A program made the translations under genes and the position numbers. 49,380 bases of DNA from positions 1 through 49,380 of the forward strand of contig JBBTTU010000002.1 in NCBI GenBank assembly GCA_038064075.1. Reading direction: 5' to 3'. Positions 30,751 through 49,380 of this stretch are shown here, piece after piece. Under the pieces are notes generated by a model, which saw only the letters and a list, made by a program, of their open reading frames with translations, made no database searches and was not told the DNA's origin. This stretch comes from Patescibacteria group bacterium (GTDB lineage: Bacteria; Patescibacteriota; Minisyncoccia; HO2-45-28). How positions within the stretch are numbered: the stretch's first letter is position 1; every line of letters starts with the position of its first letter.

Positions 30751-31555
30751 CTATCTTTATTTTCCTAACTTGGGAGTCGGACTCCCAAGTTAGACAAGCC
30801 CAGTTTTCCAGCGTCAAATCTTCGGCACGGGCGGTTGGGGAAATGCCGCATTGATCAAAACTTTTAGCTTGTAACTTATAACTTTTCAGATTATTGCTTA
30901 ATGTTTTTCTTTTATGAGCAAAGCCGGTTTTAACAAGGTTGAAAAAGATTTTTTGGCTTATTTTGTTTTCTTTAAAAAAGTCGGGCACCCGTTTTTTAAG
31001 AACAATCACTGCCGAATCAACTTTTGGCCGGGGCCGAAAATAATTTTTAGACAAATAAAAAGCGATTTTCGGTTCGGCAAAAACCTGAACCGAGACAGCC
31101 AGTAAATTCATTTTCGGCCGGCCCATAATCCGCCGGGATACTTCTTTTTGCAGCATTAAAACATAAAGTTCAGCTTTGAGGGCAGAGCGTTTAGATGACG
31201 GATTGAGCAGTAAACGTAAGAGCCGGCCGGTAAGGTAATAAGGAATATTGGCAACGATTTTATCAGCTTTTAGTTTGGAAGCGCCGGTTTTTAGAAAATC
31301 GCGGATATCGGAATGTATTAAAATCAAGCGGCCGGCTTTGATAAATTCCGCGAATTTCCGGTCCAAAAAATTGAAAAGTTCGGCGTCTTTTTCAACCGCG
31401 ATCGTTTTTTTGGCTTTTTTGAGGATTTCTCCGGTTAAAATTCCTTTGCCCGGTCCGATTTCCAGAACAAAGTCGTTTTTATCAATATCGGCGGCTTTGA
31501 CCATTTTGGCGGCAACGGATTTTGAAGTTAGAAAATGCTGGCCAAGTTTTGTCAT
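30743..31555 (-). CDS. rsmA: 16S rRNA (adenine1518/1519-N6)-dimethyltransferase RsmA/KsgA
   Basis: 270 aa. LGQHFLTSKSV and VLEIGPGKGILT SAM motif. Confidence 0.9.
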   Translation of the reverse strand: MTKLGQHFLTSKSVAAKMVKAADIDKNDFVLEIGPGKGILTGEILKKAKKTIAVEKDAELFNFLDRKFAEFIKAGRLILIHSDIRDFLKTGASKLKADKIVANIPYYLTGRLLRLLLNPSSKRSALKAELYVLMLQKEVSRRIMGRPKMNLLAVSVQVFAEPKIAFYLSKNYFRPRPKVDSAVIVLKKRVPDFFKENKISQKIFFNLVKTGFAHKRKTLSNNLKSYKLQAKSFDQCGISPTARAEDLTLENWACLTWESDSQVRKIKIVE

Positions 31556-40687: not shown

Positions 40688-41596
40688 GTGCGACATAACG
40701 ATCTCCAAAAAATTTATAAGGAATTCCTGGCGTATCTGGAAATTGAAAAAGGCCGGAGCTTGAAAACGCTTGATAATTACAGCCGCTATCTGAATGTTTT
40801 TTTTAGTTTTGCCAAGATTGGCTCGCCGGCCGGCATCAACGAAGCTGTTTGCCGCCAGTTCCGTTTATGGCTTAATCGCAGGAGTCTTAAAAAAAAGACC
40901 CAGAATTATTATTTGATAGCCCTGCGCGGATTTTTAAGATATCTGACAAGGCGCGGAATTGAAAGTTTGCCGGCTGAAAAAATTGAACTGGCCAAAACGC
41001 CGGAGCGCCAGATTGATTTGATCAATAATGATGAACTGGAACGCCTGCTTTCTTCAGCCGGTGGTTCGGACCCAAAATCGCTTCGCGACCGCGCCATGCT
41101 TGAACTTCTTTTTTCCACCGGCTTGCGCGTCTCGGAATTATGCGCTTTGAACCGCGATTCAATCAGCGTCAAAAAAGGAGAATTCAGCGTCCGGGGAAAA
41201 GGCGATAAAGTTCGCGTTGTTTTTCTTTCGGACAGTGCTAAAAATGCTCTTGAAAATTGGTCTGATAAACGCGCTGATCTGAATCCGGCTCTTTTTGTCA
41301 ATTTTAAGCCCGGCCAAAAAGCGATTGATGAATCGGCCCGGCTTACTCCTCGCTCAATTGAAAGAATTATCAAACATTATTCTACCAAAGCCGGCATAAC
41401 CAAAAAAGTGACGCCGCACGTTATCAGACATTGTTTTGCAACCGACTTGCTTGAAAACGGAGCTGATTTGCGTTCGGTTCAGGAACTTCTGGGACATGCT
41501 AACATCGCAACCACGCAAATTTACACTCACGTAACCGATCGCCGGCTCCGCGAAATCCACCAAACTTTCCATGCCATAAAAAGAAAAACCGTTTAA
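40688..41596 (+). CDS. Tyrosine recombinase, XerC/XerD type
   Basis: 302 aa, GTG start. RDRAMLELLFSTGLRVSEL, HVIRHCFATDLL and LGHANIATTQIYTHV give the R..HxxR..Y catalytic set. Confidence 0.85.
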   Translation: MRHNDLQKIYKEFLAYLEIEKGRSLKTLDNYSRYLNVFFSFAKIGSPAGINEAVCRQFRLWLNRRSLKKKTQNYYLIALRGFLRYLTRRGIESLPAEKIELAKTPERQIDLINNDELERLLSSAGGSDPKSLRDRAMLELLFSTGLRVSELCALNRDSISVKKGEFSVRGKGDKVRVVFLSDSAKNALENWSDKRADLNPALFVNFKPGQKAIDESARLTPRSIERIIKHYSTKAGITKKVTPHVIRHCFATDLLENGADLRSVQELLGHANIATTQIYTHVTDRRLREIHQTFHAIKRKTV

Positions 41597-41639: not shown

Positions 41640-41711
41640 GTCCCCGTGGTGAAACGGATATCACGACTGGCTTCGGACCAGTTGTTGGGGGTTCGAATCC
41701 CTCCGGGGACG
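41640..41711 (+). tRNA. tRNA-Arg (anticodon TCG)
   Basis: Hand-folded. Acceptor GTCCCCG/CGGGGAC, D stem GTGA/TCAC, anticodon stem ACTGG/CCAGT with loop CTTCGGA, T arm GGGGG-TTCGAAT-CCCTC. No encoded CCA. Confidence 0.85.
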
Positions 41712-41721
41712 CATTGTAAAA

Positions 41722-43242: not shown

Positions 43243-43316
43243 CGGGCCGTAGTGTAGCGGTAGCACGAGTCCTTCGGGAGGATTTAGCCCGAGTTCAAAT
43301 CTCGGCGGCCCGACCA
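43243..43316 (+). tRNA. tRNA-Pro (anticodon CGG), CCA encoded
   Basis: Acceptor CGGGCCG/CGGCCCG (C1-G72), D stem GTGT/GCAC, anticodon stem AGTCC/GGATT with loop TTCGGGA, T arm CCGAG-TTCAAAT-CTCGG, A73, CCA. Confidence 0.88.
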
Positions 43317-43348
43317 AGTTAGACATATTTAATTTAAAATATTTATAT

Positions 43349-43419
43349 GGGCCTATGGTCTAGTGGCACGACGCCACATTCGCATTGTGGAGACGGGAGT
43401 TCGATTCTCCCTAGGTCCA
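43349..43419 (+). tRNA. tRNA-Ala (anticodon CGC)
   Basis: Acceptor GGGCCTA/TAGGTCC with the G3:U70 Ala identity pair. Anticodon stem CCACA/TGTGG with loop TTCGCAT. T arm GGGAG-TTCGATT-CTCCC. Short D arm. Confidence 0.8.
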
Positions 43420-43445
43420 AAAATATAGTTATTCAGATTTTTTAT

Positions 43446-43463
43446 AATGTTTCACGTTTTACA
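43446..43463. repeat. 18-nt repeat, inverted copy (AATGTTTCACGTTTTACA)
   Basis: Exact reverse complement of 43573-43590. Confidence 0.8.
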
Positions 43464-43572
43464 CTATTGGACACTTATTATTTTATAGGACATTTGATAT
43501 TAAAACGTATGTCCATTATTTTTTTATTTTACTATAATATTATTTATAAAAAAGAATTAATCAGATGAAAAA

Positions 43573-43590
43573 TGTAAAACGTGAAACATT
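43573..43590. repeat. 18-nt repeat, direct copy abutting the yraN start (TGTAAAACGTGAAACATT)
   Basis: Ends one base before ATG 43591. 17 of its 18 nt recur at 44004-44020. Confidence 0.8.
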
Positions 43591-43998
43591 ATGTGGAGTG
43601 AAAAAAGAAAATTAGGAAACCTCGGTGAAGATATTTGTGTGAAACATCTCGTGAAACACGGATATAAGATTTTAGATAGAAATTATCTTAAAAAGTGGGG
43701 AGAAATAGATATAGTGGCTAAAAAGGACTCAACTATTCATTTTATAGAAGTAAAAACTGTTGAATTAAAAAGTTTCACGGGAAACAATAGTTTCACGCGA
43801 AACAATTTTGAAAGTTATGATCCGGAAGAAAATGTTCATCCCTGGAAATTAAAAAAACTTTCGCGGGCTATACAAACATATTTATTGGATAAAAATATTG
43901 ATGATGACACCGAATGGCAAGTTGATATAGCCGCGGTTTTTCTTGATTTTGAGACCAAAAAAGCTAAAATAAGGATTACAGAAGATATTGGATTGTAA
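43591..43998 (+). CDS. yraN: YraN/UPF0102 family predicted endonuclease
   Basis: 135 aa. GNLGEDICVKHLVKHGYKILDRNY...GEIDIVAKKD..IHFIEVKT restriction-endonuclease-like core. Contains an in-frame 18-nt tandem duplication at 43771-43806. Confidence 0.8.
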   Translation: MWSEKRKLGNLGEDICVKHLVKHGYKILDRNYLKKWGEIDIVAKKDSTIHFIEVKTVELKSFTGNNSFTRNNFESYDPEENVHPWKLKKLSRAIQTYLLDKNIDDDTEWQVDIAAVFLDFETKKAKIRITEDIGL

Positions 43999-44003
43999 TA
44001 AAT

Positions 44004-44020
44004 TGTAAAACGTGAAACAT
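44004..44020. repeat. 17-nt direct repeat copy downstream of yraN (TGTAAAACGTGAAACAT)
   Basis: Starts 6 nt after the yraN stop and abuts the tRNA 5' fragment. Confidence 0.8.
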
Positions 44021-44061
44021 CGGGCTGGTGTATGATGGTGGTACGCCTGCTTCTTATCCGC
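44021..44061 (+). pseudogene. tRNA 5' half (Pro-like acceptor and D arm, ends near the anticodon loop)
   Basis: CGGGCTG-GT-GTAT-GATGGTG-GTAC-G-CCTGC-TTCTTAT parallels the layout of the neighbouring tRNA-Pro genes. No T arm follows. Its acceptor strand is complementary to CAGCCCG at 44241-44247. Confidence 0.45.
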
Positions 44062-44073
44062 CTAAATTTTTAG

Positions 44074-44147
44074 CGGGGTGTCGTATACCGGTAGTACGCA
44101 TGCTTTGGGAGCATGTAGACTGGGTTCAATTCCCAGCACCCCGACCA
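44074..44147 (+). tRNA. tRNA-Pro (anticodon TGG), CCA encoded
   Basis: Acceptor CGGGGTG/CACCCCG, D stem GTAT/GTAC, anticodon stem CATGC/GCATG with loop TTTGGGA, T arm CTGGG-TTCAATT-CCCAG, A73, CCA. Confidence 0.88.
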
Positions 44148-44218
44148 ATCAAGACAAGTCAAATTATACTATGGGGTGGGGCGCCCCGAAGAAGAGCAAA
44201 ACTCTCTACGGGATAAAT

Positions 44219-44262
44219 TTTAGTCCGAGTTCGAATCTCGGCAGCCCGACCAAGTTAGACAT
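44219..44262 (+). pseudogene. tRNA-Pro-like 3' half (T arm, acceptor, CCA) plus 10-nt flank; duplicate of 43283-43326
   Basis: TTTAGTCCGAGTTCGAATCTCGGCAGCCCGACCAAGTTAGACAT matches the 3' end and downstream flank of tRNA-Pro(CGG) at 41 of 44 positions. I could not fold an adjacent 5' half. Confidence 0.5.
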
Positions 44263-44319
44263 TGAGAGTTTTCGGAGGAGATTATCTCGCGGCTTCGCCG
44301 CTCGGGTGTGGCGGAAGGA

Positions 44320-44336
44320 GGGGGGGGTTGGGGGGG
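44320..44336 (+). repeat. G8-TT-G7 homopolymer pair
   Basis: GGGGGGGGTTGGGGGGG, counted base by base, within a short GC-rich patch in an AT-rich region. Confidence 0.8.
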
Positions 44337-44473
44337 ATGTCAAGTACCCCTTTTTTAGTAAATAATCTAAACTTACAAAATCTGCTTGTTTTTTTATTGA
44401 TATTTTTGCTATATTAAATCTAAATAGAGTTAGTTTGTTATTTTGAAAATTTTTATTGAAAGGAGGGGGAATA

Positions 44474-45270: not shown

Positions 45271-45314
45271 CCCAAGGGGCTTCCTCGGGGAGTTTCCCGA
45301 GGAAGCCCCTCGGG
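45271..45314. repeat. REP-like palindrome doublet (two inverted units)
   Basis: CCCAAGGGGCTTCCTCGGGG-AGTTT-CCCGAGGAAGCCCCTCGGG. Each unit is itself a 7-bp-stem hairpin (CCCGAGG/CCTCGGG). Lies between convergent genes. Confidence 0.75.
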
Positions 45315-46257: not shown

Positions 46258-46278
46258 CCGTAAAATTCCCGAGGGGGC
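46258..46278. repeat. REP-like palindrome unit
   Basis: CCCGAGGGGGCTTCCTCGGGG, in the divergent intergenic region ~38 nt before the transposase left hairpin. Confidence 0.75.
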
Positions 46279-46315
46279 TTCCTCGGGGAAAGAAGATATC
46301 CACAGAAGAGATTTC

Positions 46316-47025
46316 CCCTAGGACCGTCCTAGGGTGTATAATATCTATATGTACCGCAAATTTGAATTTTCTGAAAATGAATTTTATCATTTATATAATC
46401 GCGGCAATGATAAAAGAACCGTTTTTTTGGACGATAATGATAGAAAGCGGTTTATAAAATTATTGTTTCTCGCCAACAATAATAACCCTATTAATCTTCG
46501 GGATATTCCCCTAGGACGGTCCTTTGTAGAAATGGAAAGGGGACAAACTATTGTGGATATTGGCGCTTATTGCTTAATGCCGAATCATTTTCATTTGCTT
46601 GTTTGCGAGAAAAAAGAAGGCGGAATCAGTAATTTTATGAAAAAATTATGCACTTCCCACTCAATGTATTTTAATATGAAATATGGAAGAACTGGTTCTC
46701 TTTTTGAAGGCGTATTCAAGGCTGAACATGCGGAAAAAGATGAATATTTAGAATATCTGTTCGCTTATATTCATTTGAATCCGATTAAATTGATTGAGCC
46801 GGAGTGGTATGAAAAAGGATTGTCCGATACGGATAAAGCTAAAAAATTCTTGGAAAATTACAGATATTCAAGTTACCCGGACTACATTGGCGAGAGTCGG
46901 CCGGAAACGGCGATTCTTAATAAAAACGCGTTTTCAGGATATTTTGAGAATCAGAAAGAGTTTAAAGATTACATTAATGACTGGCTTAATTATCAAAAGG
47001 TTAATACATAGGACCGTCCTATGTA
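46316..47025 (+). mobile_element. IS200/IS605-like or RAYT unit (~710 bp) bounded by related palindromes
   Basis: Left CCCTAGGACCGTCCTAGGG (46316-46334) and right TACATAGGACCGTCCTATGTA (47005-47025) share the 13-mer TAGGACCGTCCTA. A single Y1 transposase gene fills the interval. Confidence 0.6.
46349..47011 (+). CDS. Y1 (HUH) tyrosine transposase, IS200-like / REP-associated (RAYT-like)
   Basis: 220 aa from ATG 46349. HUH motif CLMPNHFHLLV and Tyr motif FAYIHLNPIK. Confidence 0.75.
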   Translation: MYRKFEFSENEFYHLYNRGNDKRTVFLDDNDRKRFIKLLFLANNNNPINLRDIPLGRSFVEMERGQTIVDIGAYCLMPNHFHLLVCEKKEGGISNFMKKLCTSHSMYFNMKYGRTGSLFEGVFKAEHAEKDEYLEYLFAYIHLNPIKLIEPEWYEKGLSDTDKAKKFLENYRYSSYPDYIGESRPETAILNKNAFSGYFENQKEFKDYINDWLNYQKVNT

Positions 47026-47752: not shown

Positions 47753-49380
47753 ATGAGCAAGAGTTTTTTGAAATTTTTAATAAAGATCAATATTTATCTT
47801 ATTCTTTTTAGCGCATCTGTTTTTGCTCTTCATTTTGTTTTGGCTTATTCACCATACAACACCCATCCGGCGCTGACCGAAGAAATGGCTAATTTCTTTA
47901 ATATCAAGAATCAAAACAAATTATCCGATCAGAATATTGGATGGATGATGGAGGGTTCAATAAACGAAGACCAGGCACCAAGATGGATTAACCATTTTTA
48001 CGATCCAATTCATAATGAAGGATGGAAAGGAAAACACTTTGGCAATTTATCCGAAGAACAAGGTTATAAAATTGGGGCGGATGTCGCGCCTAAAGAAGCA
48101 ATTACTTCTTTAGATTGGGCAATAAATCAAGAATATCAGTCAGCTTATGGTAGACAGTTTGGCAATCAAACCTGGCAAAAAGCCATAAAGTCATACATTG
48201 ACGGAGATAAAAAGTCCGCTTTTATCGCTCTCGGACATATTCTCCATTTAATTGAAGATGCGAGTGTTCCTGATCATACGCGCAATGATACCCACGCTGA
48301 TTTTTACGGCGATCCTGGTTCTCCGTATGAAGATTATGCAAAAGAATATACTAATTTTAATGAATTAACAGTTGCCGTTGATTTAGTACAAGAGAATAAA
48401 GATTTATTGACGTTTCAAAGCCTTGCTCAAGCTTTTGATTATTTGGCTGATTATTCCAATAAAAATTTCTTTTCTGAAGATACAATAAGTAATAAAGAAT
48501 TTGTGGAGCCGGATTTGGAAAAATTACGAAAGAATACAAAAGAATTAGGAAATGAAAAAATTATATTTTTATATAATTCAAACACTGGATATTATATTGC
48601 TTTTTTAGATAATAAAACAAAAAATTATTCTGTAAACGATACAAAATTTATCCTCCCTTCCTATCGCATCCATCTCTTCCCTCAAGCGGTCCTCATCGGC
48701 GCAAGCGTAATAGATTTATTTTTCAGAGAAGCGGAGCGTTATCAAAATAATGAAGAATCTATTGAAGTTCTTTCTGACCAAAACGAGTCTTTGTTACAAA
48801 CATTAAAACACACTCCTAAACTTGCTGTTCTTAATATTGCTGATTTTTATGACAGAAATGCGACCAAACTGGAAGTAGTGGTGATAAAAACATATCAGCT
48901 CGCGAAAAATACGATCAAAAACATCTCTTTAAAAATTTATCCAAAAATCGTCTTGCCCGAATCCCAACTTGCGATTATTTCTCCGCCAAAAGAAACAATT
49001 CCGATATCGGATACTGAACAATTTTTGTTCCCCGAGGAAGCCCCTCGGGGGGAAAGTTCGACTTTGGCGGATTTGTCTGAATTACAAATAACTCTTGATG
49101 AAGCAAAAGCGCGAGTCGCGGTTTTGGAAAAGCAAGTAGCTGAAATCGCGCAAATCGTGCAAGCTCAAGCTCAAGCGCGAGCCCAATCTCAATCTCAAGC
49201 GCAAGCACAAGTGCGACAAAACAACAATTTGGAGACTAAGTCTCCAAGTGCGGCAAAAGCGGCAAATAATTTTGCCGCTCTCCCTTACGCTGGCTTTGGC
49301 GGGGGAGCGGCGCCGTCAGACGCGGCGCCAACGGAAAACGCGACCAACACTTCCAGCTCAACTTCGGTTGAGCTTTTTGT
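47753..49380 (+). CDS. Zinc-dependent phospholipase C-like domain protein with low-complexity C-terminal region; 3' end beyond window
   Basis: Not in the supplied track (no stop in the window). I translated it codon by codon from ATG 47753 and found no stop to 49380. Signal/TM N-terminus, HPALTEEMANFF and ALGHILHLIEDASVPDHTRND His/Asp motifs. Confidence 0.6.
   Translation, partial: MSKSFLKFLIKINIYLILFSASVFALHFVLAYSPYNTHPALTEEMANFFNIKNQNKLSDQNIGWMMEGSINEDQAPRWINHFYDPIHNEGWKGKHFGNLSEEQGYKIGADVAPKEAITSLDWAINQEYQSAYGRQFGNQTWQKAIKSYIDGDKKSAFIALGHILHLIEDASVPDHTRNDTHADFYGDPGSPYEDYAKEYTNFNELTVAVDLVQENKDLLTFQSLAQAFDYLADYSNKNFFSEDTISNKEFVEPDLEKLRKNTKELGNEKIIFLYNSNTGYYIAFLDNKTKNYSVNDTKFILPSYRIHLFPQAVLIGASVIDLFFREAERYQNNEESIEVLSDQNESLLQTLKHTPKLAVLNIADFYDRNATKLEVVVIKTYQLAKNTIKNISLKIYPKIVLPESQLAIISPPKETIPISDTEQFLFPEEAPRGESSTLADLSELQITLDEAKARVAVLEKQVAEIAQIVQAQAQARAQSQSQAQAQVRQNNNLETKSPSAAKAANNFAALPYAGFGGGAAPSDAAPTENATNTSSSTSVELF
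49030..49050. repeat. REP-like palindrome unit inside a CDS
   Basis: CCCCGAGGAAGCCCCTCGGGG, in frame, encoding part of FPEEAPRGES. Confidence 0.75.
49160..49210 (+). repeat. Imperfect hexanucleotide tandem repeat (CAAGCN/CAATCT) encoding a QA/QS repeat
   Basis: CAAGCTCAAGCTCAAGCGCGAGCCCAATCTCAATCTCAAGCGCAAGCACAA translates to QAQAQARAQSQSQAQAQ. Confidence 0.7.

Follow-up and report, generated by a model that had tools for sequence, protein, structure and literature searches.

In the classical type of integration at an attachment (att) site, a single 3' fragment of the tRNA gene is displaced and the gene is rebuilt from the sequence of the element. Repetitive extragenic palindromes (REPs) with their RAYT transposases, as well as hairpin-forming miniature inverted-repeat transposable elements (MITEs), are short GC-rich imperfect palindromes which occur in several copies per genome and whose arms covary; to our knowledge, REPs are extragenic and carry no cargo. 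The locus compared here with such systems lies near the end of a 49,380-nt stretch of contig JBBTTU010000002.1 (the whole stretch is hereafter called the window) from a Niyogibacteria-like member of the Parcubacteria, where a complete tRNA-Pro(TGG) gene is enclosed by the two halves of a broken tRNA-Pro gene. We refer to the broken outer gene as the shell and to the whole arrangement as a nest. With a probability of about 0.6, in our estimate, an insert with two arms, which carried a second tRNA-Pro(TGG), entered the resident tRNA-Pro(TGG) gene at the anticodon and broke it in two.

Other described systems are relevant as well. In tRNA-dependent lysogeny of actinobacteriophages, the prophage breaks a host tRNA gene and supplies its own tRNA (PMC10865867). 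In phage T4, the GIY-YIG homing endonuclease SegB, encoded in a tRNA cluster, drives the preferential inheritance of its own tRNA region (PMC2330249). The pieces of archaeal split, permuted and multi-intron tRNAs are rejoined by a ligase and an endonuclease specific for the bulge-helix-bulge motif, and such disruption has been proposed to protect against integrating elements (PMC4033280, PMC3218864). For bacterial tRNA genes, introns are the only significant structural variant known, according to a review (PMC4033280).

Anatomy of the nested tRNA-Pro locus

Loci of other genomes are designated by L-numbers and, unless stated otherwise, surround homologues of the gene for the CCA-adding enzyme (cca), with one genome per species. 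The features of the nest and of the gene before it are as follows.

43591-43998, + strand: yraN, protein of the UPF0102 nuclease family (Pfam PF02021, E=4.6e-19), outside the insert
44004-44020, + strand: TGTAAAACGTGAAACAT, conserved 17-nt motif abutting the first base of the shell
44021-44052, + strand: shell 5' half, tRNA positions 1-33 (acceptor, D arm, 5' anticodon-stem strand CCTGC, T32 T33)
44053-44073, + strand: left junction and left arm, CTTA TCCGCCTAAATTTTT AG, in place of the anticodon
44074-44147, + strand: inner intact tRNA-Pro(TGG) with CCA (ARAGORN; Rfam 58.1 bits)
44148-44209, + strand: degraded right flank of the insert, assigned by eye from comparison with GGGG-TGAAG-GA of L128, L138, L017 and L032; it contains the trailer ATCAAGACAAGTC
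44161-44176: right-arm remnant AAATTA..GGGG
44177 and 44188-44191: right junction, T and GAAG, interrupted by the palindrome GGGGCGCCCC (10 nt, 44178-44187)
44210-44252, + strand: shell 3' half (GGGA as anticodon-loop positions 35-38, variable loop, T arm CCGAG/CTCGG, CAGCCCG, A73, CCA)
44253-44262, + strand: trailer AGTTAGACAT after CCA, copy 2

That orphan 5' and 3' halves flank a complete tRNA-Pro(TGG), as stated in the original prediction, was borne out by ARAGORN, Rfam and nhmmer, the tRNA-Pro profile matching 44218-44250 of the 3' half with E=4.4e-5. The whole locus is base-for-base identical in four other assemblies from the same aquifer (L001-L004; Hainich groundwater site), and since these assemblies are independent, an assembly artefact is ruled out. 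The 5' half reads CGGGCTG GT GTAT GATGGTG GTAC G CCTGC TT, and its acceptor strand is complementary to the CAGCCCG of the 3' half in 7/7 positions. This pair had been singled out as compensatory; the complementarity is exact and is evidence that the halves were once one gene (L304 has CAGCCCG as well), but CGGGCTG/CAGCCCG is the commonest tRNA-Pro acceptor in the clade, so the match does not show present function.

The identity of the shell follows from its neighborhood. The gene yraN followed by tRNA-Pro(TGG) on the same strand is a conserved pair across Parcubacteria, the two being adjacent in L032, L056, L064, L065, L067, L068, L072, L294-L304 and others. The loci of the closest YraN homologues (including L294-L304) were retrieved for comparison, and a single un-nested TGG gene was found next to yraN in L294-L300 and L302. 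L301 (YraN 78% identical) and L304 (74%) keep an intact un-nested TGG gene directly after the motif TGTAAAACGTGAAAC(A/G)T, which is exactly where the 5' half of the window starts. The unusual D loop GATGGTG is common to the window 5' half and both intact genes: that of L304 reads CGGGTTG GC GTAT GATGGTG GTAC G CCTGC TTTGGGA GCAGG ... CAGCCCG A, and that of L301 begins with CGGGCCG GC GTAT GATGGTG GTAC G. By our own count, the 5' half agrees with the L304 gene in 30/32 and with the L301 gene in 28/32 positions; it also shares 31/35 bases with the shell of L032. Moreover, the CCTGC stem strand and the CAGCCCG acceptor strand are common to the window shell and the L304 gene, and the T arm CCGAG/CTCGG of the 3' half is that of the resident TGG genes of L294-L300. 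The orthology to the intact L304 and L301 genes means that the halves once belonged to one gene. From these comparisons the halves are the former resident tRNA-Pro(TGG) of the yraN locus. The idea of a third tRNA-Pro gene disrupted by insertion thus stands as far as the disruption is concerned, while the gene concerned was not a third isoacceptor.

The motif TGTAAAACGTGAAACAT lies ~20 nt before the TGG gene in L295-L297 and is present in three copies around yraN of the window, namely at 43447-43463 (-, inverted), at 43572-43589 (+, immediately preceding the yraN start codon) and at 44004-44020 (+). It may represent a promoter/operator region or a small repeat. Its core CGTGAAAC/GTTTCACG was also observed in an 18-nt tandem repeat within yraN (43768-43803), which adds six amino acids missing in the closest homologues.

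The inner gene has its acceptor and D arm in common with L294-L300, its T arm with L301 and its anticodon arm with the innermost gene of L128; it is another TGG allele of the Niyogibacteria type and is taken to be the working gene. On its left side the shell reads CCTGC TT and continues with CTTA TCCGCCTAAATTTTT AG, that is, TT is followed by CTTA instead of TGG. This agrees with the left junctions of L032, L128 (twice) and L138, in which TT is followed by CTTG-CCC(N)CC..., and the fossil nest of L028 keeps the exact complement of the window left arm, AAAATTTAGGCGGG-TGAAGG. Only the left junction clearly shows the displaced anticodon. The right flank (44148-44209) had no match elsewhere, the two arms now share just 5 complementary bases, and the nest with its degraded junction folds weakly (z=-2.25). 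The window copy is old and partly eroded, as seen from the unpaired arms, the right junction split by a palindrome and the 3' half resembling the tRNA-Pro(CGG) gene. The bracket TAAATTTT(T)AG on both sides of the inner segment occurs at chance frequency, and its reading as a target-site duplication was rejected: 18 matches with at most one mismatch were counted in this AT-rich window against 15.6 expected.

Nested tRNA-Pro genes in other Parcubacteria

Orphan tRNA-Pro halves were sought with a structural script and nhmmer. Nests or their remnants were present at the tRNA-Pro locus in ~14 of ~62 Parcubacteria genomes sampled by similarity of the cca gene, i.e., in roughly one in five. An intact tRNA-Pro between co-oriented orphan halves was found in L032 (Giovannonibacteria), L017 (Jorgensenbacteria), L007 and L012, and the same layout with both halves in L009, L011, L043, L064 and L067. 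L031 has an intact tRNA-Pro with an orphan 5' half only, 3' remnants remain in L008, L029 and L030, and L028 holds a fully decayed fossil. A metagenome scan with the 5'-half pattern returned 62 loci, 60 of which were chance matches in protein-coding DNA; the two true ones were L128, with three layers (an outer tRNA-Pro shell, a second shell and an intact tRNA-Pro(TGG)), and L138 from another Hainich well, with four. A further nest occupies the CGG locus of L304, the close relative retrieved through YraN. All 17 counted layers are co-oriented and the inner gene is a tRNA-Pro in 17/17. The insert measures ~110-160 nt, of which ~40-90 nt are not tRNA. We found no description of nested tRNA genes in bacteria in the searchable full-text literature, the coverage of which is incomplete, so that a prior description is possible.

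The junctions were sorted by eye into three types. In type 1 (the window, L032, L138, L128 in two shells and, as a variant, L017), the anticodon stem with T32 T33 is retained on the left side of the shell; CTTG and an arm rich in CCC/CCGCC follow, and a short run of bases leads to the inner tRNA. On the right come CA.., the complementary arm and TGAAG, after which the shell resumes with G37 A38 and the 3' stem strand. In this layout, the anticodon triplet is replaced. In type 2 (L009 and two layers of L138), the insert stands in for the complete anticodon arm, beginning behind position 26 and reaching the variable loop. In type 3 (L007/L012, L011, L064, L067 and L043), the break falls after position 37 and two extra hairpins are present on the right. 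The junctions in the anticodon loop lie at 33/34-36/37, and at 37/38 in one subfamily. The motif TT/CTTG-arm...arm'-TGAAG/GA (slashes at the shell boundaries) recurs in five shells with differing anticodon stems (L128 outer, L128 middle, L032, L138 and L017), to which the window compares with TT/CTTA-TCCGCC on the left and GGGG-T, the palindrome and GAAG on the right.

In the well-preserved nests, the arms pair right up to the inner acceptor stem in every case. Over 13 inserts, the arm pairs comprise 187 Watson-Crick against 27 non-Watson-Crick (13 G-T, 4 A-C and 10 other). For the analysis of covariation, the five type-1 shells were aligned after the inner tRNA and secondary loop insertions had been removed by hand, and RNAalifold returned the outer acceptor, D and T stems together with a 26-pair helix. 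In these shells, 91% of the cells are paired vs 43-57% with the partners slid; compensatory changes affect 16 of 42 pairs, of which 11 belong to the long helix, and none of 500 shuffles reached any of the observed pairing or covariation values. These figures come from five sequences only and from a structure derived from the same sequences, and the covariation of the tRNA stems is inherited from their functional past. In comparison, the covariation of the arms cannot be explained by past tRNA function. At the consensus junction, the helix is uninterrupted; its tandem G-U pairs and its single bulged A are kept in four of the five copies. RNAfold places one cloverleaf inside another in L032, L017, L011 and L128, with z=-9.4 for the L128 fold. 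In silico, shuffling of the right arm lowered the predicted folding of the inner tRNA in L017, L007 and L011, had no effect in L032, L009 and L128, and gave the opposite trend in the window.

Since the anticodon (type 1) or the anticodon arm (type 2) is absent, the joined halves cannot decode. The shell is presumably a dead gene; only the innermost gene can decode, and it alone would be expressed as tRNA. The shells show signs of decay. Extra insertions were found in the T loop of the outer shell of L128 (70 nt), the T stem of L138 (20 nt), the T loop of L009 and L008, the D loop of L012 (38 nt) and after the D arm of L304 (a 34-nt hairpin). One or both halves are badly decayed next to an intact inner gene in L043, L064 and L067. 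Between L007 and L012, the arms differ by 1 base in 34, and the shell by two indels and two substitutions; hence the arms are conserved and the shell is not.

The nests are also subject to turnover. Gene order is shared between L304 and the window, but the states are opposite: in L304, the CGG gene is split and the TGG gene intact; in the window, CGG is intact and TGG split. The 3' half of the split CGG shell of L304 is identical to 43276-43316 of the window, and its 5' part reads CGGGCCG TA GTGT AGCGGCA GCAC. The flanks of L011 and L013 are 100% identical, and the single gene of L013 consists of the acceptor and T arm of the L011 outer gene and the body of the L011 inner gene. L013 was considered as the empty site of L011 and rejected as such, being a mosaic of shell and inner gene; the outer body of L011 is too diverged to have decayed since the two loci separated. 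Judged by its sequence, L013 is probably a nest which collapsed by recombination between the shell and the inner copy. Such exchange of sequence between shell and inner gene explains the mosaics.

A crude scan flagged orphan halves also for Arg, Ala, Lys and Gly tRNAs, with a threshold which also picks up neighboring tRNAs; Lys alone was checked. At the tRNA-Lys(CTT) loci of L014 and L018, a 5' fragment ending at position 26 is followed by an open reading frame (ORF) for a GIY-YIG nuclease and then by an intact tRNA-Lys, and L036 has the same three pieces in the order 5' fragment, intact tRNA-Lys, ORF.

L014, 2891-3519, - strand: tRNA-Lys locus
L018, ~1000-1420, - strand: tRNA-Lys locus
L036, ~1900-2350, - strand: tRNA-Lys locus

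The ORF of L014 was recognized by Pfam (E=3e-19), and those of L018 and L036 match it by tblastn (1.5e-10 and 1.9e-12). These loci look like a replacement cassette composed of a nuclease and a tRNA. The 5' fragment carries a small D-loop palindrome in L014 and L018, further 3' fragments are present, and the GIY-YIG ORF abuts or overlaps the intact tRNA-Lys.

Origin of the nests and rival explanations

The favored explanation is as follows. The resident tRNA-Pro(TGG) after yraN would have been split at the anticodon by a short insert consisting of two originally pairing arms around a complete second tRNA-Pro(TGG). With its anticodon displaced, the old gene would no longer decode and would survive as the halves 44021-44052 and 44210-44252. 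The inner gene would take over decoding, presumably transcribed from the upstream region of the old gene, and the ends of its tRNA would presumably be trimmed by the ordinary enzymes of tRNA processing. Inserts of this kind would have entered tRNA-Pro genes of Parcubacteria repeatedly, sometimes the tRNA of an earlier insert, giving two to four layers. Shell and inner copies would later recombine into mosaics and sometimes collapse to one gene, while the shells decay.

Locus anatomy, shell orthology, the recurrence of nests, the shared junction, the covarying arms and the decay of shells are shown, and they describe a recurrent, orientation-consistent and site-specific replacement of the anticodon by an armed cassette of the same isotype. 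The pattern further suggests that the insert represents a present or former mobile DNA element capable of forming a hairpin. The shell of L304 that houses the tRNA-loaded hairpin also contains an 'empty' one of 34 nt whose arms have the same core (CCCCGCAC/GTGCGGGG), and small GC-rich palindromes are present in other shell loops; outside L304, the small hairpins differ from the arms. A Y1 transposase gene (IS200-like, RAYT-like) is found at 46334-47011 of the window, about 2-2.3 kb downstream of the nest, and a Y1_Tnp gene directly upstream of yraN in L294, L298-L300 and L302 (~820-1480 in each), which are relatives with a single TGG gene and show co-occurrence only. The empty hairpin, the shell-loop palindromes and the nearby Y1 genes are suggestive of a hairpin element at the DNA level. 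The GC-rich palindromic repeat CCCGAGGAAGCCCCT was observed in four copies in the last 5 kb of the window (0.9 expected); copies at 45275-45310, 46273-46287 and 49031-49045 surround the Y1 gene, and the repeats look like a REP-type family. As a tentative proposal, which we would not yet back over its negation, the nests might constitute an undescribed class of self-compensating mobile elements in Patescibacteria: a hairpin-armed cassette with a tRNA as its sole cargo, homing into the anticodon or position 26/27 of a matching tRNA gene, replacing it instead of being spliced, forming layers by repeated invasion, and having a CUUG/UGAAG junction, with its G-U pairs and bulged A, recognized by a structure-specific enzyme or an RNA-processing step.

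Several observations speak against the insertion of an armed, formerly mobile cassette. In the window, positions 39-43 of the 3' half are TAAAT and do not pair with CCTGC, ~18 nt (44192-44209) are left without assignment, and the right side as a whole (44148-44224) is only partly assignable. No transposase, integrase or nuclease gene was found inside any of the tRNA-Pro inserts examined, so that mobility is deduced from the pattern and not from a machinery. The insert contains no ORF, and the junction motifs gave chance matches only against IMG/VR viral contigs. The gene yraN had been considered as an element-borne nuclease and was rejected, its synteny with tRNA-Pro(TGG) being general. The compensatory arm changes, the conserved G-U pairs of the junction and the bulged A fit a role at the RNA level as well, and on the sense strand G-U-type mismatches outnumber A-C-type ones 13 vs 4, with 4 of the 13 representing one homologous position. 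The sole clean filled/empty pair, L011 and L013, is better read as a collapse, which leaves no direct before/after view of an insertion. Finally, the sample of genomes is small and biased.

The points on the arms are also the strength of a rather unlikely alternative, namely that the nest is a functional RNA design, in which the shell serves as a scaffold for folding, processing or stability, or is a non-decoding tRNA-like RNA, and the arms are a selected processing stem. The arms, and the two further hairpins of one subfamily, stay paired despite sequence divergence, the tandem G-U pairs and the bulged A are kept at the junction in 4/5 copies, there is an excess of sense-strand G-U, the acceptor, D and T stems are retained in well-preserved shells, and the effect of right-arm shuffling in L017, L007 and L011 is in line with such a role. 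Nevertheless, the folding test was flat in L032, L009 and L128 and ran the other way in the window, where the arms are unpaired and the fold is weak. Large insertions into the T loop, T stem and D loop of shells, as well as the decay in L043, L064, L067 and L012 next to an intact inner gene, are difficult to reconcile with a selected scaffold, and close relatives have a plain single gene at the same locus.

The remaining alternatives concern the surroundings of the nest. The order of genes at the locus is Xer-like recombinase, tRNA-Arg, CCA-adding enzyme, tRNA-Pro(CGG), tRNA-Ala, yraN and tRNA-Pro(TGG), with the following further features.

40688-41596: XerC/D-like tyrosine recombinase gene, 2.5 kb upstream
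41640-41712: tRNA-Arg(TCG) (ARAGORN; Rfam tRNA 58-63 bits)
43243-43316, + strand: intact tRNA-Pro(CGG) with encoded CCA (ARAGORN; Rfam tRNA 60.8 bits), the 3' part being repeat copy 1
43317-43326, + strand: trailer AGTTAGACAT after CCA, copy 1
43348-43420: tRNA-Ala(CGC) (ARAGORN; Rfam tRNA 58-63 bits)

The 44-nt direct repeat at 43283-43326 and 44219-44262, predicted with three mismatches, was confirmed (41/44 identical) and is the strongest direct repeat across the whole 49-kb window; its second copy lies in the 3' half of the shell. The similarity of this half to the CGG gene, which extends into the trailer, may go back either to conversion by the CGG locus or to a T arm inherited from a common ancestor. 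The trailer AGTTAGACAT belongs to the motif CCA-A[GCT]T[TGC]A[AG]AC, the inner TGG gene is followed by the variant ATCAAGACAA, and related trailers follow tRNA-Pro genes of L029, L048, L034, L138, L009 and L040. Where tRNA-Pro genes of the compared loci encode CCA, A[GCT]T[TGC]A[AG]AC is a frequent trailer; where they do not, the discriminator A is mostly followed at once by CA (..GACA..). At 30761-30797 of the window, a perfect 14-nt inverted repeat CTAACTTGGGAGTC/GACTCCCAAGTTAG was noticed; its 3' arm with the flank, CCAAGTTAGACAA, is one mismatch from the tRNA-Pro end with trailer CCAAGTTAGACAT, and such a match has a chance expectation of ~0.06 by our own estimate. On the 3' side of the shell's 3' half (44306-44352), GGCGGAAGGAG resembles the right junction without TG, and a G run GGGGGGGGTTGGGGGGG at 44319-44335 occurs together with a terminator-like GGGG..CCCC TTTTTT. 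These features may mark where transcription of the unit ends, or may be left over from another layer.

Could the nest have arisen without any mobile element, from neighboring tRNA-Pro paralogues that underwent local duplication, unequal recombination and gene conversion and then decayed, with the 44-nt repeat as a copied CGG 3' end plus trailer? The match of the 3' half to the CGG gene including the trailer is what such copying would leave behind. Mosaics are common, as exemplified by L013 with the acceptor and T arm of the outer and the body of the inner L011 gene; the inner gene of the window shares its acceptor with L294-L300 and its T arm with L301, and L138 repeats a 5' half plus its left flank. 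However, local duplication leaves unexplained the strict placement at the anticodon or at position 26/27, the same junction in shells of distant lineages with different anticodon stems, the pairing and covarying arms, and the empty hairpin of L304 with the same arms. We consider it unlikely as the origin of the nest.

Even less credit is given to the view that an integrase once inserted an element into the 3' end of tRNA-Pro(CGG), with the 44-nt repeats as its attL and attR, and that most of this element has since been deleted. The direct repeat of a tRNA 3' end does run past CCA, a XerC/D-like recombinase is encoded upstream, and true 3'-end duplications of the T-loop type exist in the relatives L304 (3500-3665) and L008. 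Yet the 10-nt identity past CCA, offered as an att signature, loses its weight with a trailer motif common to other tRNA-Pro genes. The bounded segment 43327-44218 consists of tRNA-Ala, yraN and the nest, with no integrase, and the order of tRNA-Ala and yraN is as in L304; the recombinase lies outside the segment and is found beside the cca gene in L304 as well. Neither does this model predict a 5' half upstream. Integration-site remnants are thus at most a minor contributor. T-loop insertions in tRNA-Pro genes were seen at L304 3456-3665, L008 5452-5603 and L009 2140-2224; in L304 and L008, an intact gene is followed by the insert and by a duplicated 3' end starting from the T loop (a 26-nt direct repeat in L304), a pattern which is classical att-like and unlike the anticodon nests.

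A split or intron-containing tRNA with halves joined as RNA in the manner of Nanoarchaeum, giving a third tRNA-Pro, has a negligible probability: its acceptor strands are complementary, its co-oriented halves would be co-transcribed and, as in archaeal split tRNAs, complementary sequences lie 3' of the 5' half and 5' of the 3' half in relatives, but with the anticodon triplet replaced or the arm missing no splice restores a 7-nt NGG loop, the helix is continuous with one bulged A instead of a bulge-helix-bulge with its 4-bp helix between two 3-nt bulges, and the shells decay. ARAGORN, run with introns to 400 nt and thresholds to 70%, did not fold the halves into one tRNA and gave no split tRNA-Pro, only low-score artefacts. 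Rfam found tRNAs only, with no intron or ribozyme at E<=10 in the region of the window and at E<=0.5 in ten nest loci; a tmRNA_permuted match at 44120-44178 (E=0.058) was dismissed as the T arm and acceptor of the inner tRNA.

Replacement of a tRNA gene by an insert would be a third way to tolerate insertion into an essential RNA gene, besides splicing and 3'-end reconstruction. A recurrent gene-inside-gene layout with up to four layers at the tRNA-Pro loci of about one in five sampled Parcubacteria would be a clear exception among bacterial tRNA genes. It also shows how rapidly tRNA genes can be gained, recombined into mosaics and collapsed where genomes are tiny. In annotations of such genomes, an orphan tRNA half next to an intact tRNA should be listed as a relic and not as a split gene. 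If the arms and junction turn out to be a signal for RNA processing or to be targeted by a new structure-specific nuclease or recombinase, direct tests of the system become possible. The main interest lies in the family of nests, of which the window copy is an old and eroded example.

Comparison with known systems

Tolerance by replacement is most reminiscent of tRNA-dependent lysogeny, in which the host tRNA is not rebuilt at the junction, just as the shell of a nest is left without an anticodon. In that system, however, an entire prophage is at work, which has a tyrosine integrase and a core of ~10 bp close to the tRNA (PMC10865867), whereas the insert of a nest has ~110-160 nt with a tRNA as its sole gene, sits exactly at the anticodon, has paired arms and forms layers.

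Classical att integration shares with the nests the anticodon and T loops as points of insertion and a displaced 3' fragment, as in the T loop of L304 and L008, but a nest leaves both halves with a separate complete gene between them. SegB finds its likeness in the tRNA-Lys loci of L014, L018 and L036, where a GIY-YIG ORF occurs together with one intact tRNA and a fragment of a broken one. In contrast, the tRNA-Pro nests have no nuclease ORF, and homing by SegB replaces a region without yielding a gene within a gene.

With archaeal split tRNAs, the nests share an interruption near the anticodon and complementary sequences flanking the break. They differ in being bacterial, in lacking the bulge-helix-bulge and the anticodon, and in that the intervening piece is itself a tRNA. 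Bacterial group I introns likewise insert into the anticodon loop of a bacterial tRNA gene (PMC4033280), but no ribozyme core (P3-P8) was detected in the nests with the Rfam model Intron_gpI, the inserts are mostly tRNA, and the cost of the insertion is met by replacement and not by splicing.

As in REPs and MITEs, the arms of the nests stay complementary while their sequence varies (not so in the window copy, with its 5 bp), and a Y1 gene is located nearby; unlike REPs, nests are intragenic to tRNA genes and carry a tRNA cargo. Overall, the tRNA-Pro nests stand apart from all the systems compared by the combination of an insert free of protein genes, an exact anticodon site, covarying paired arms and stacked layers.

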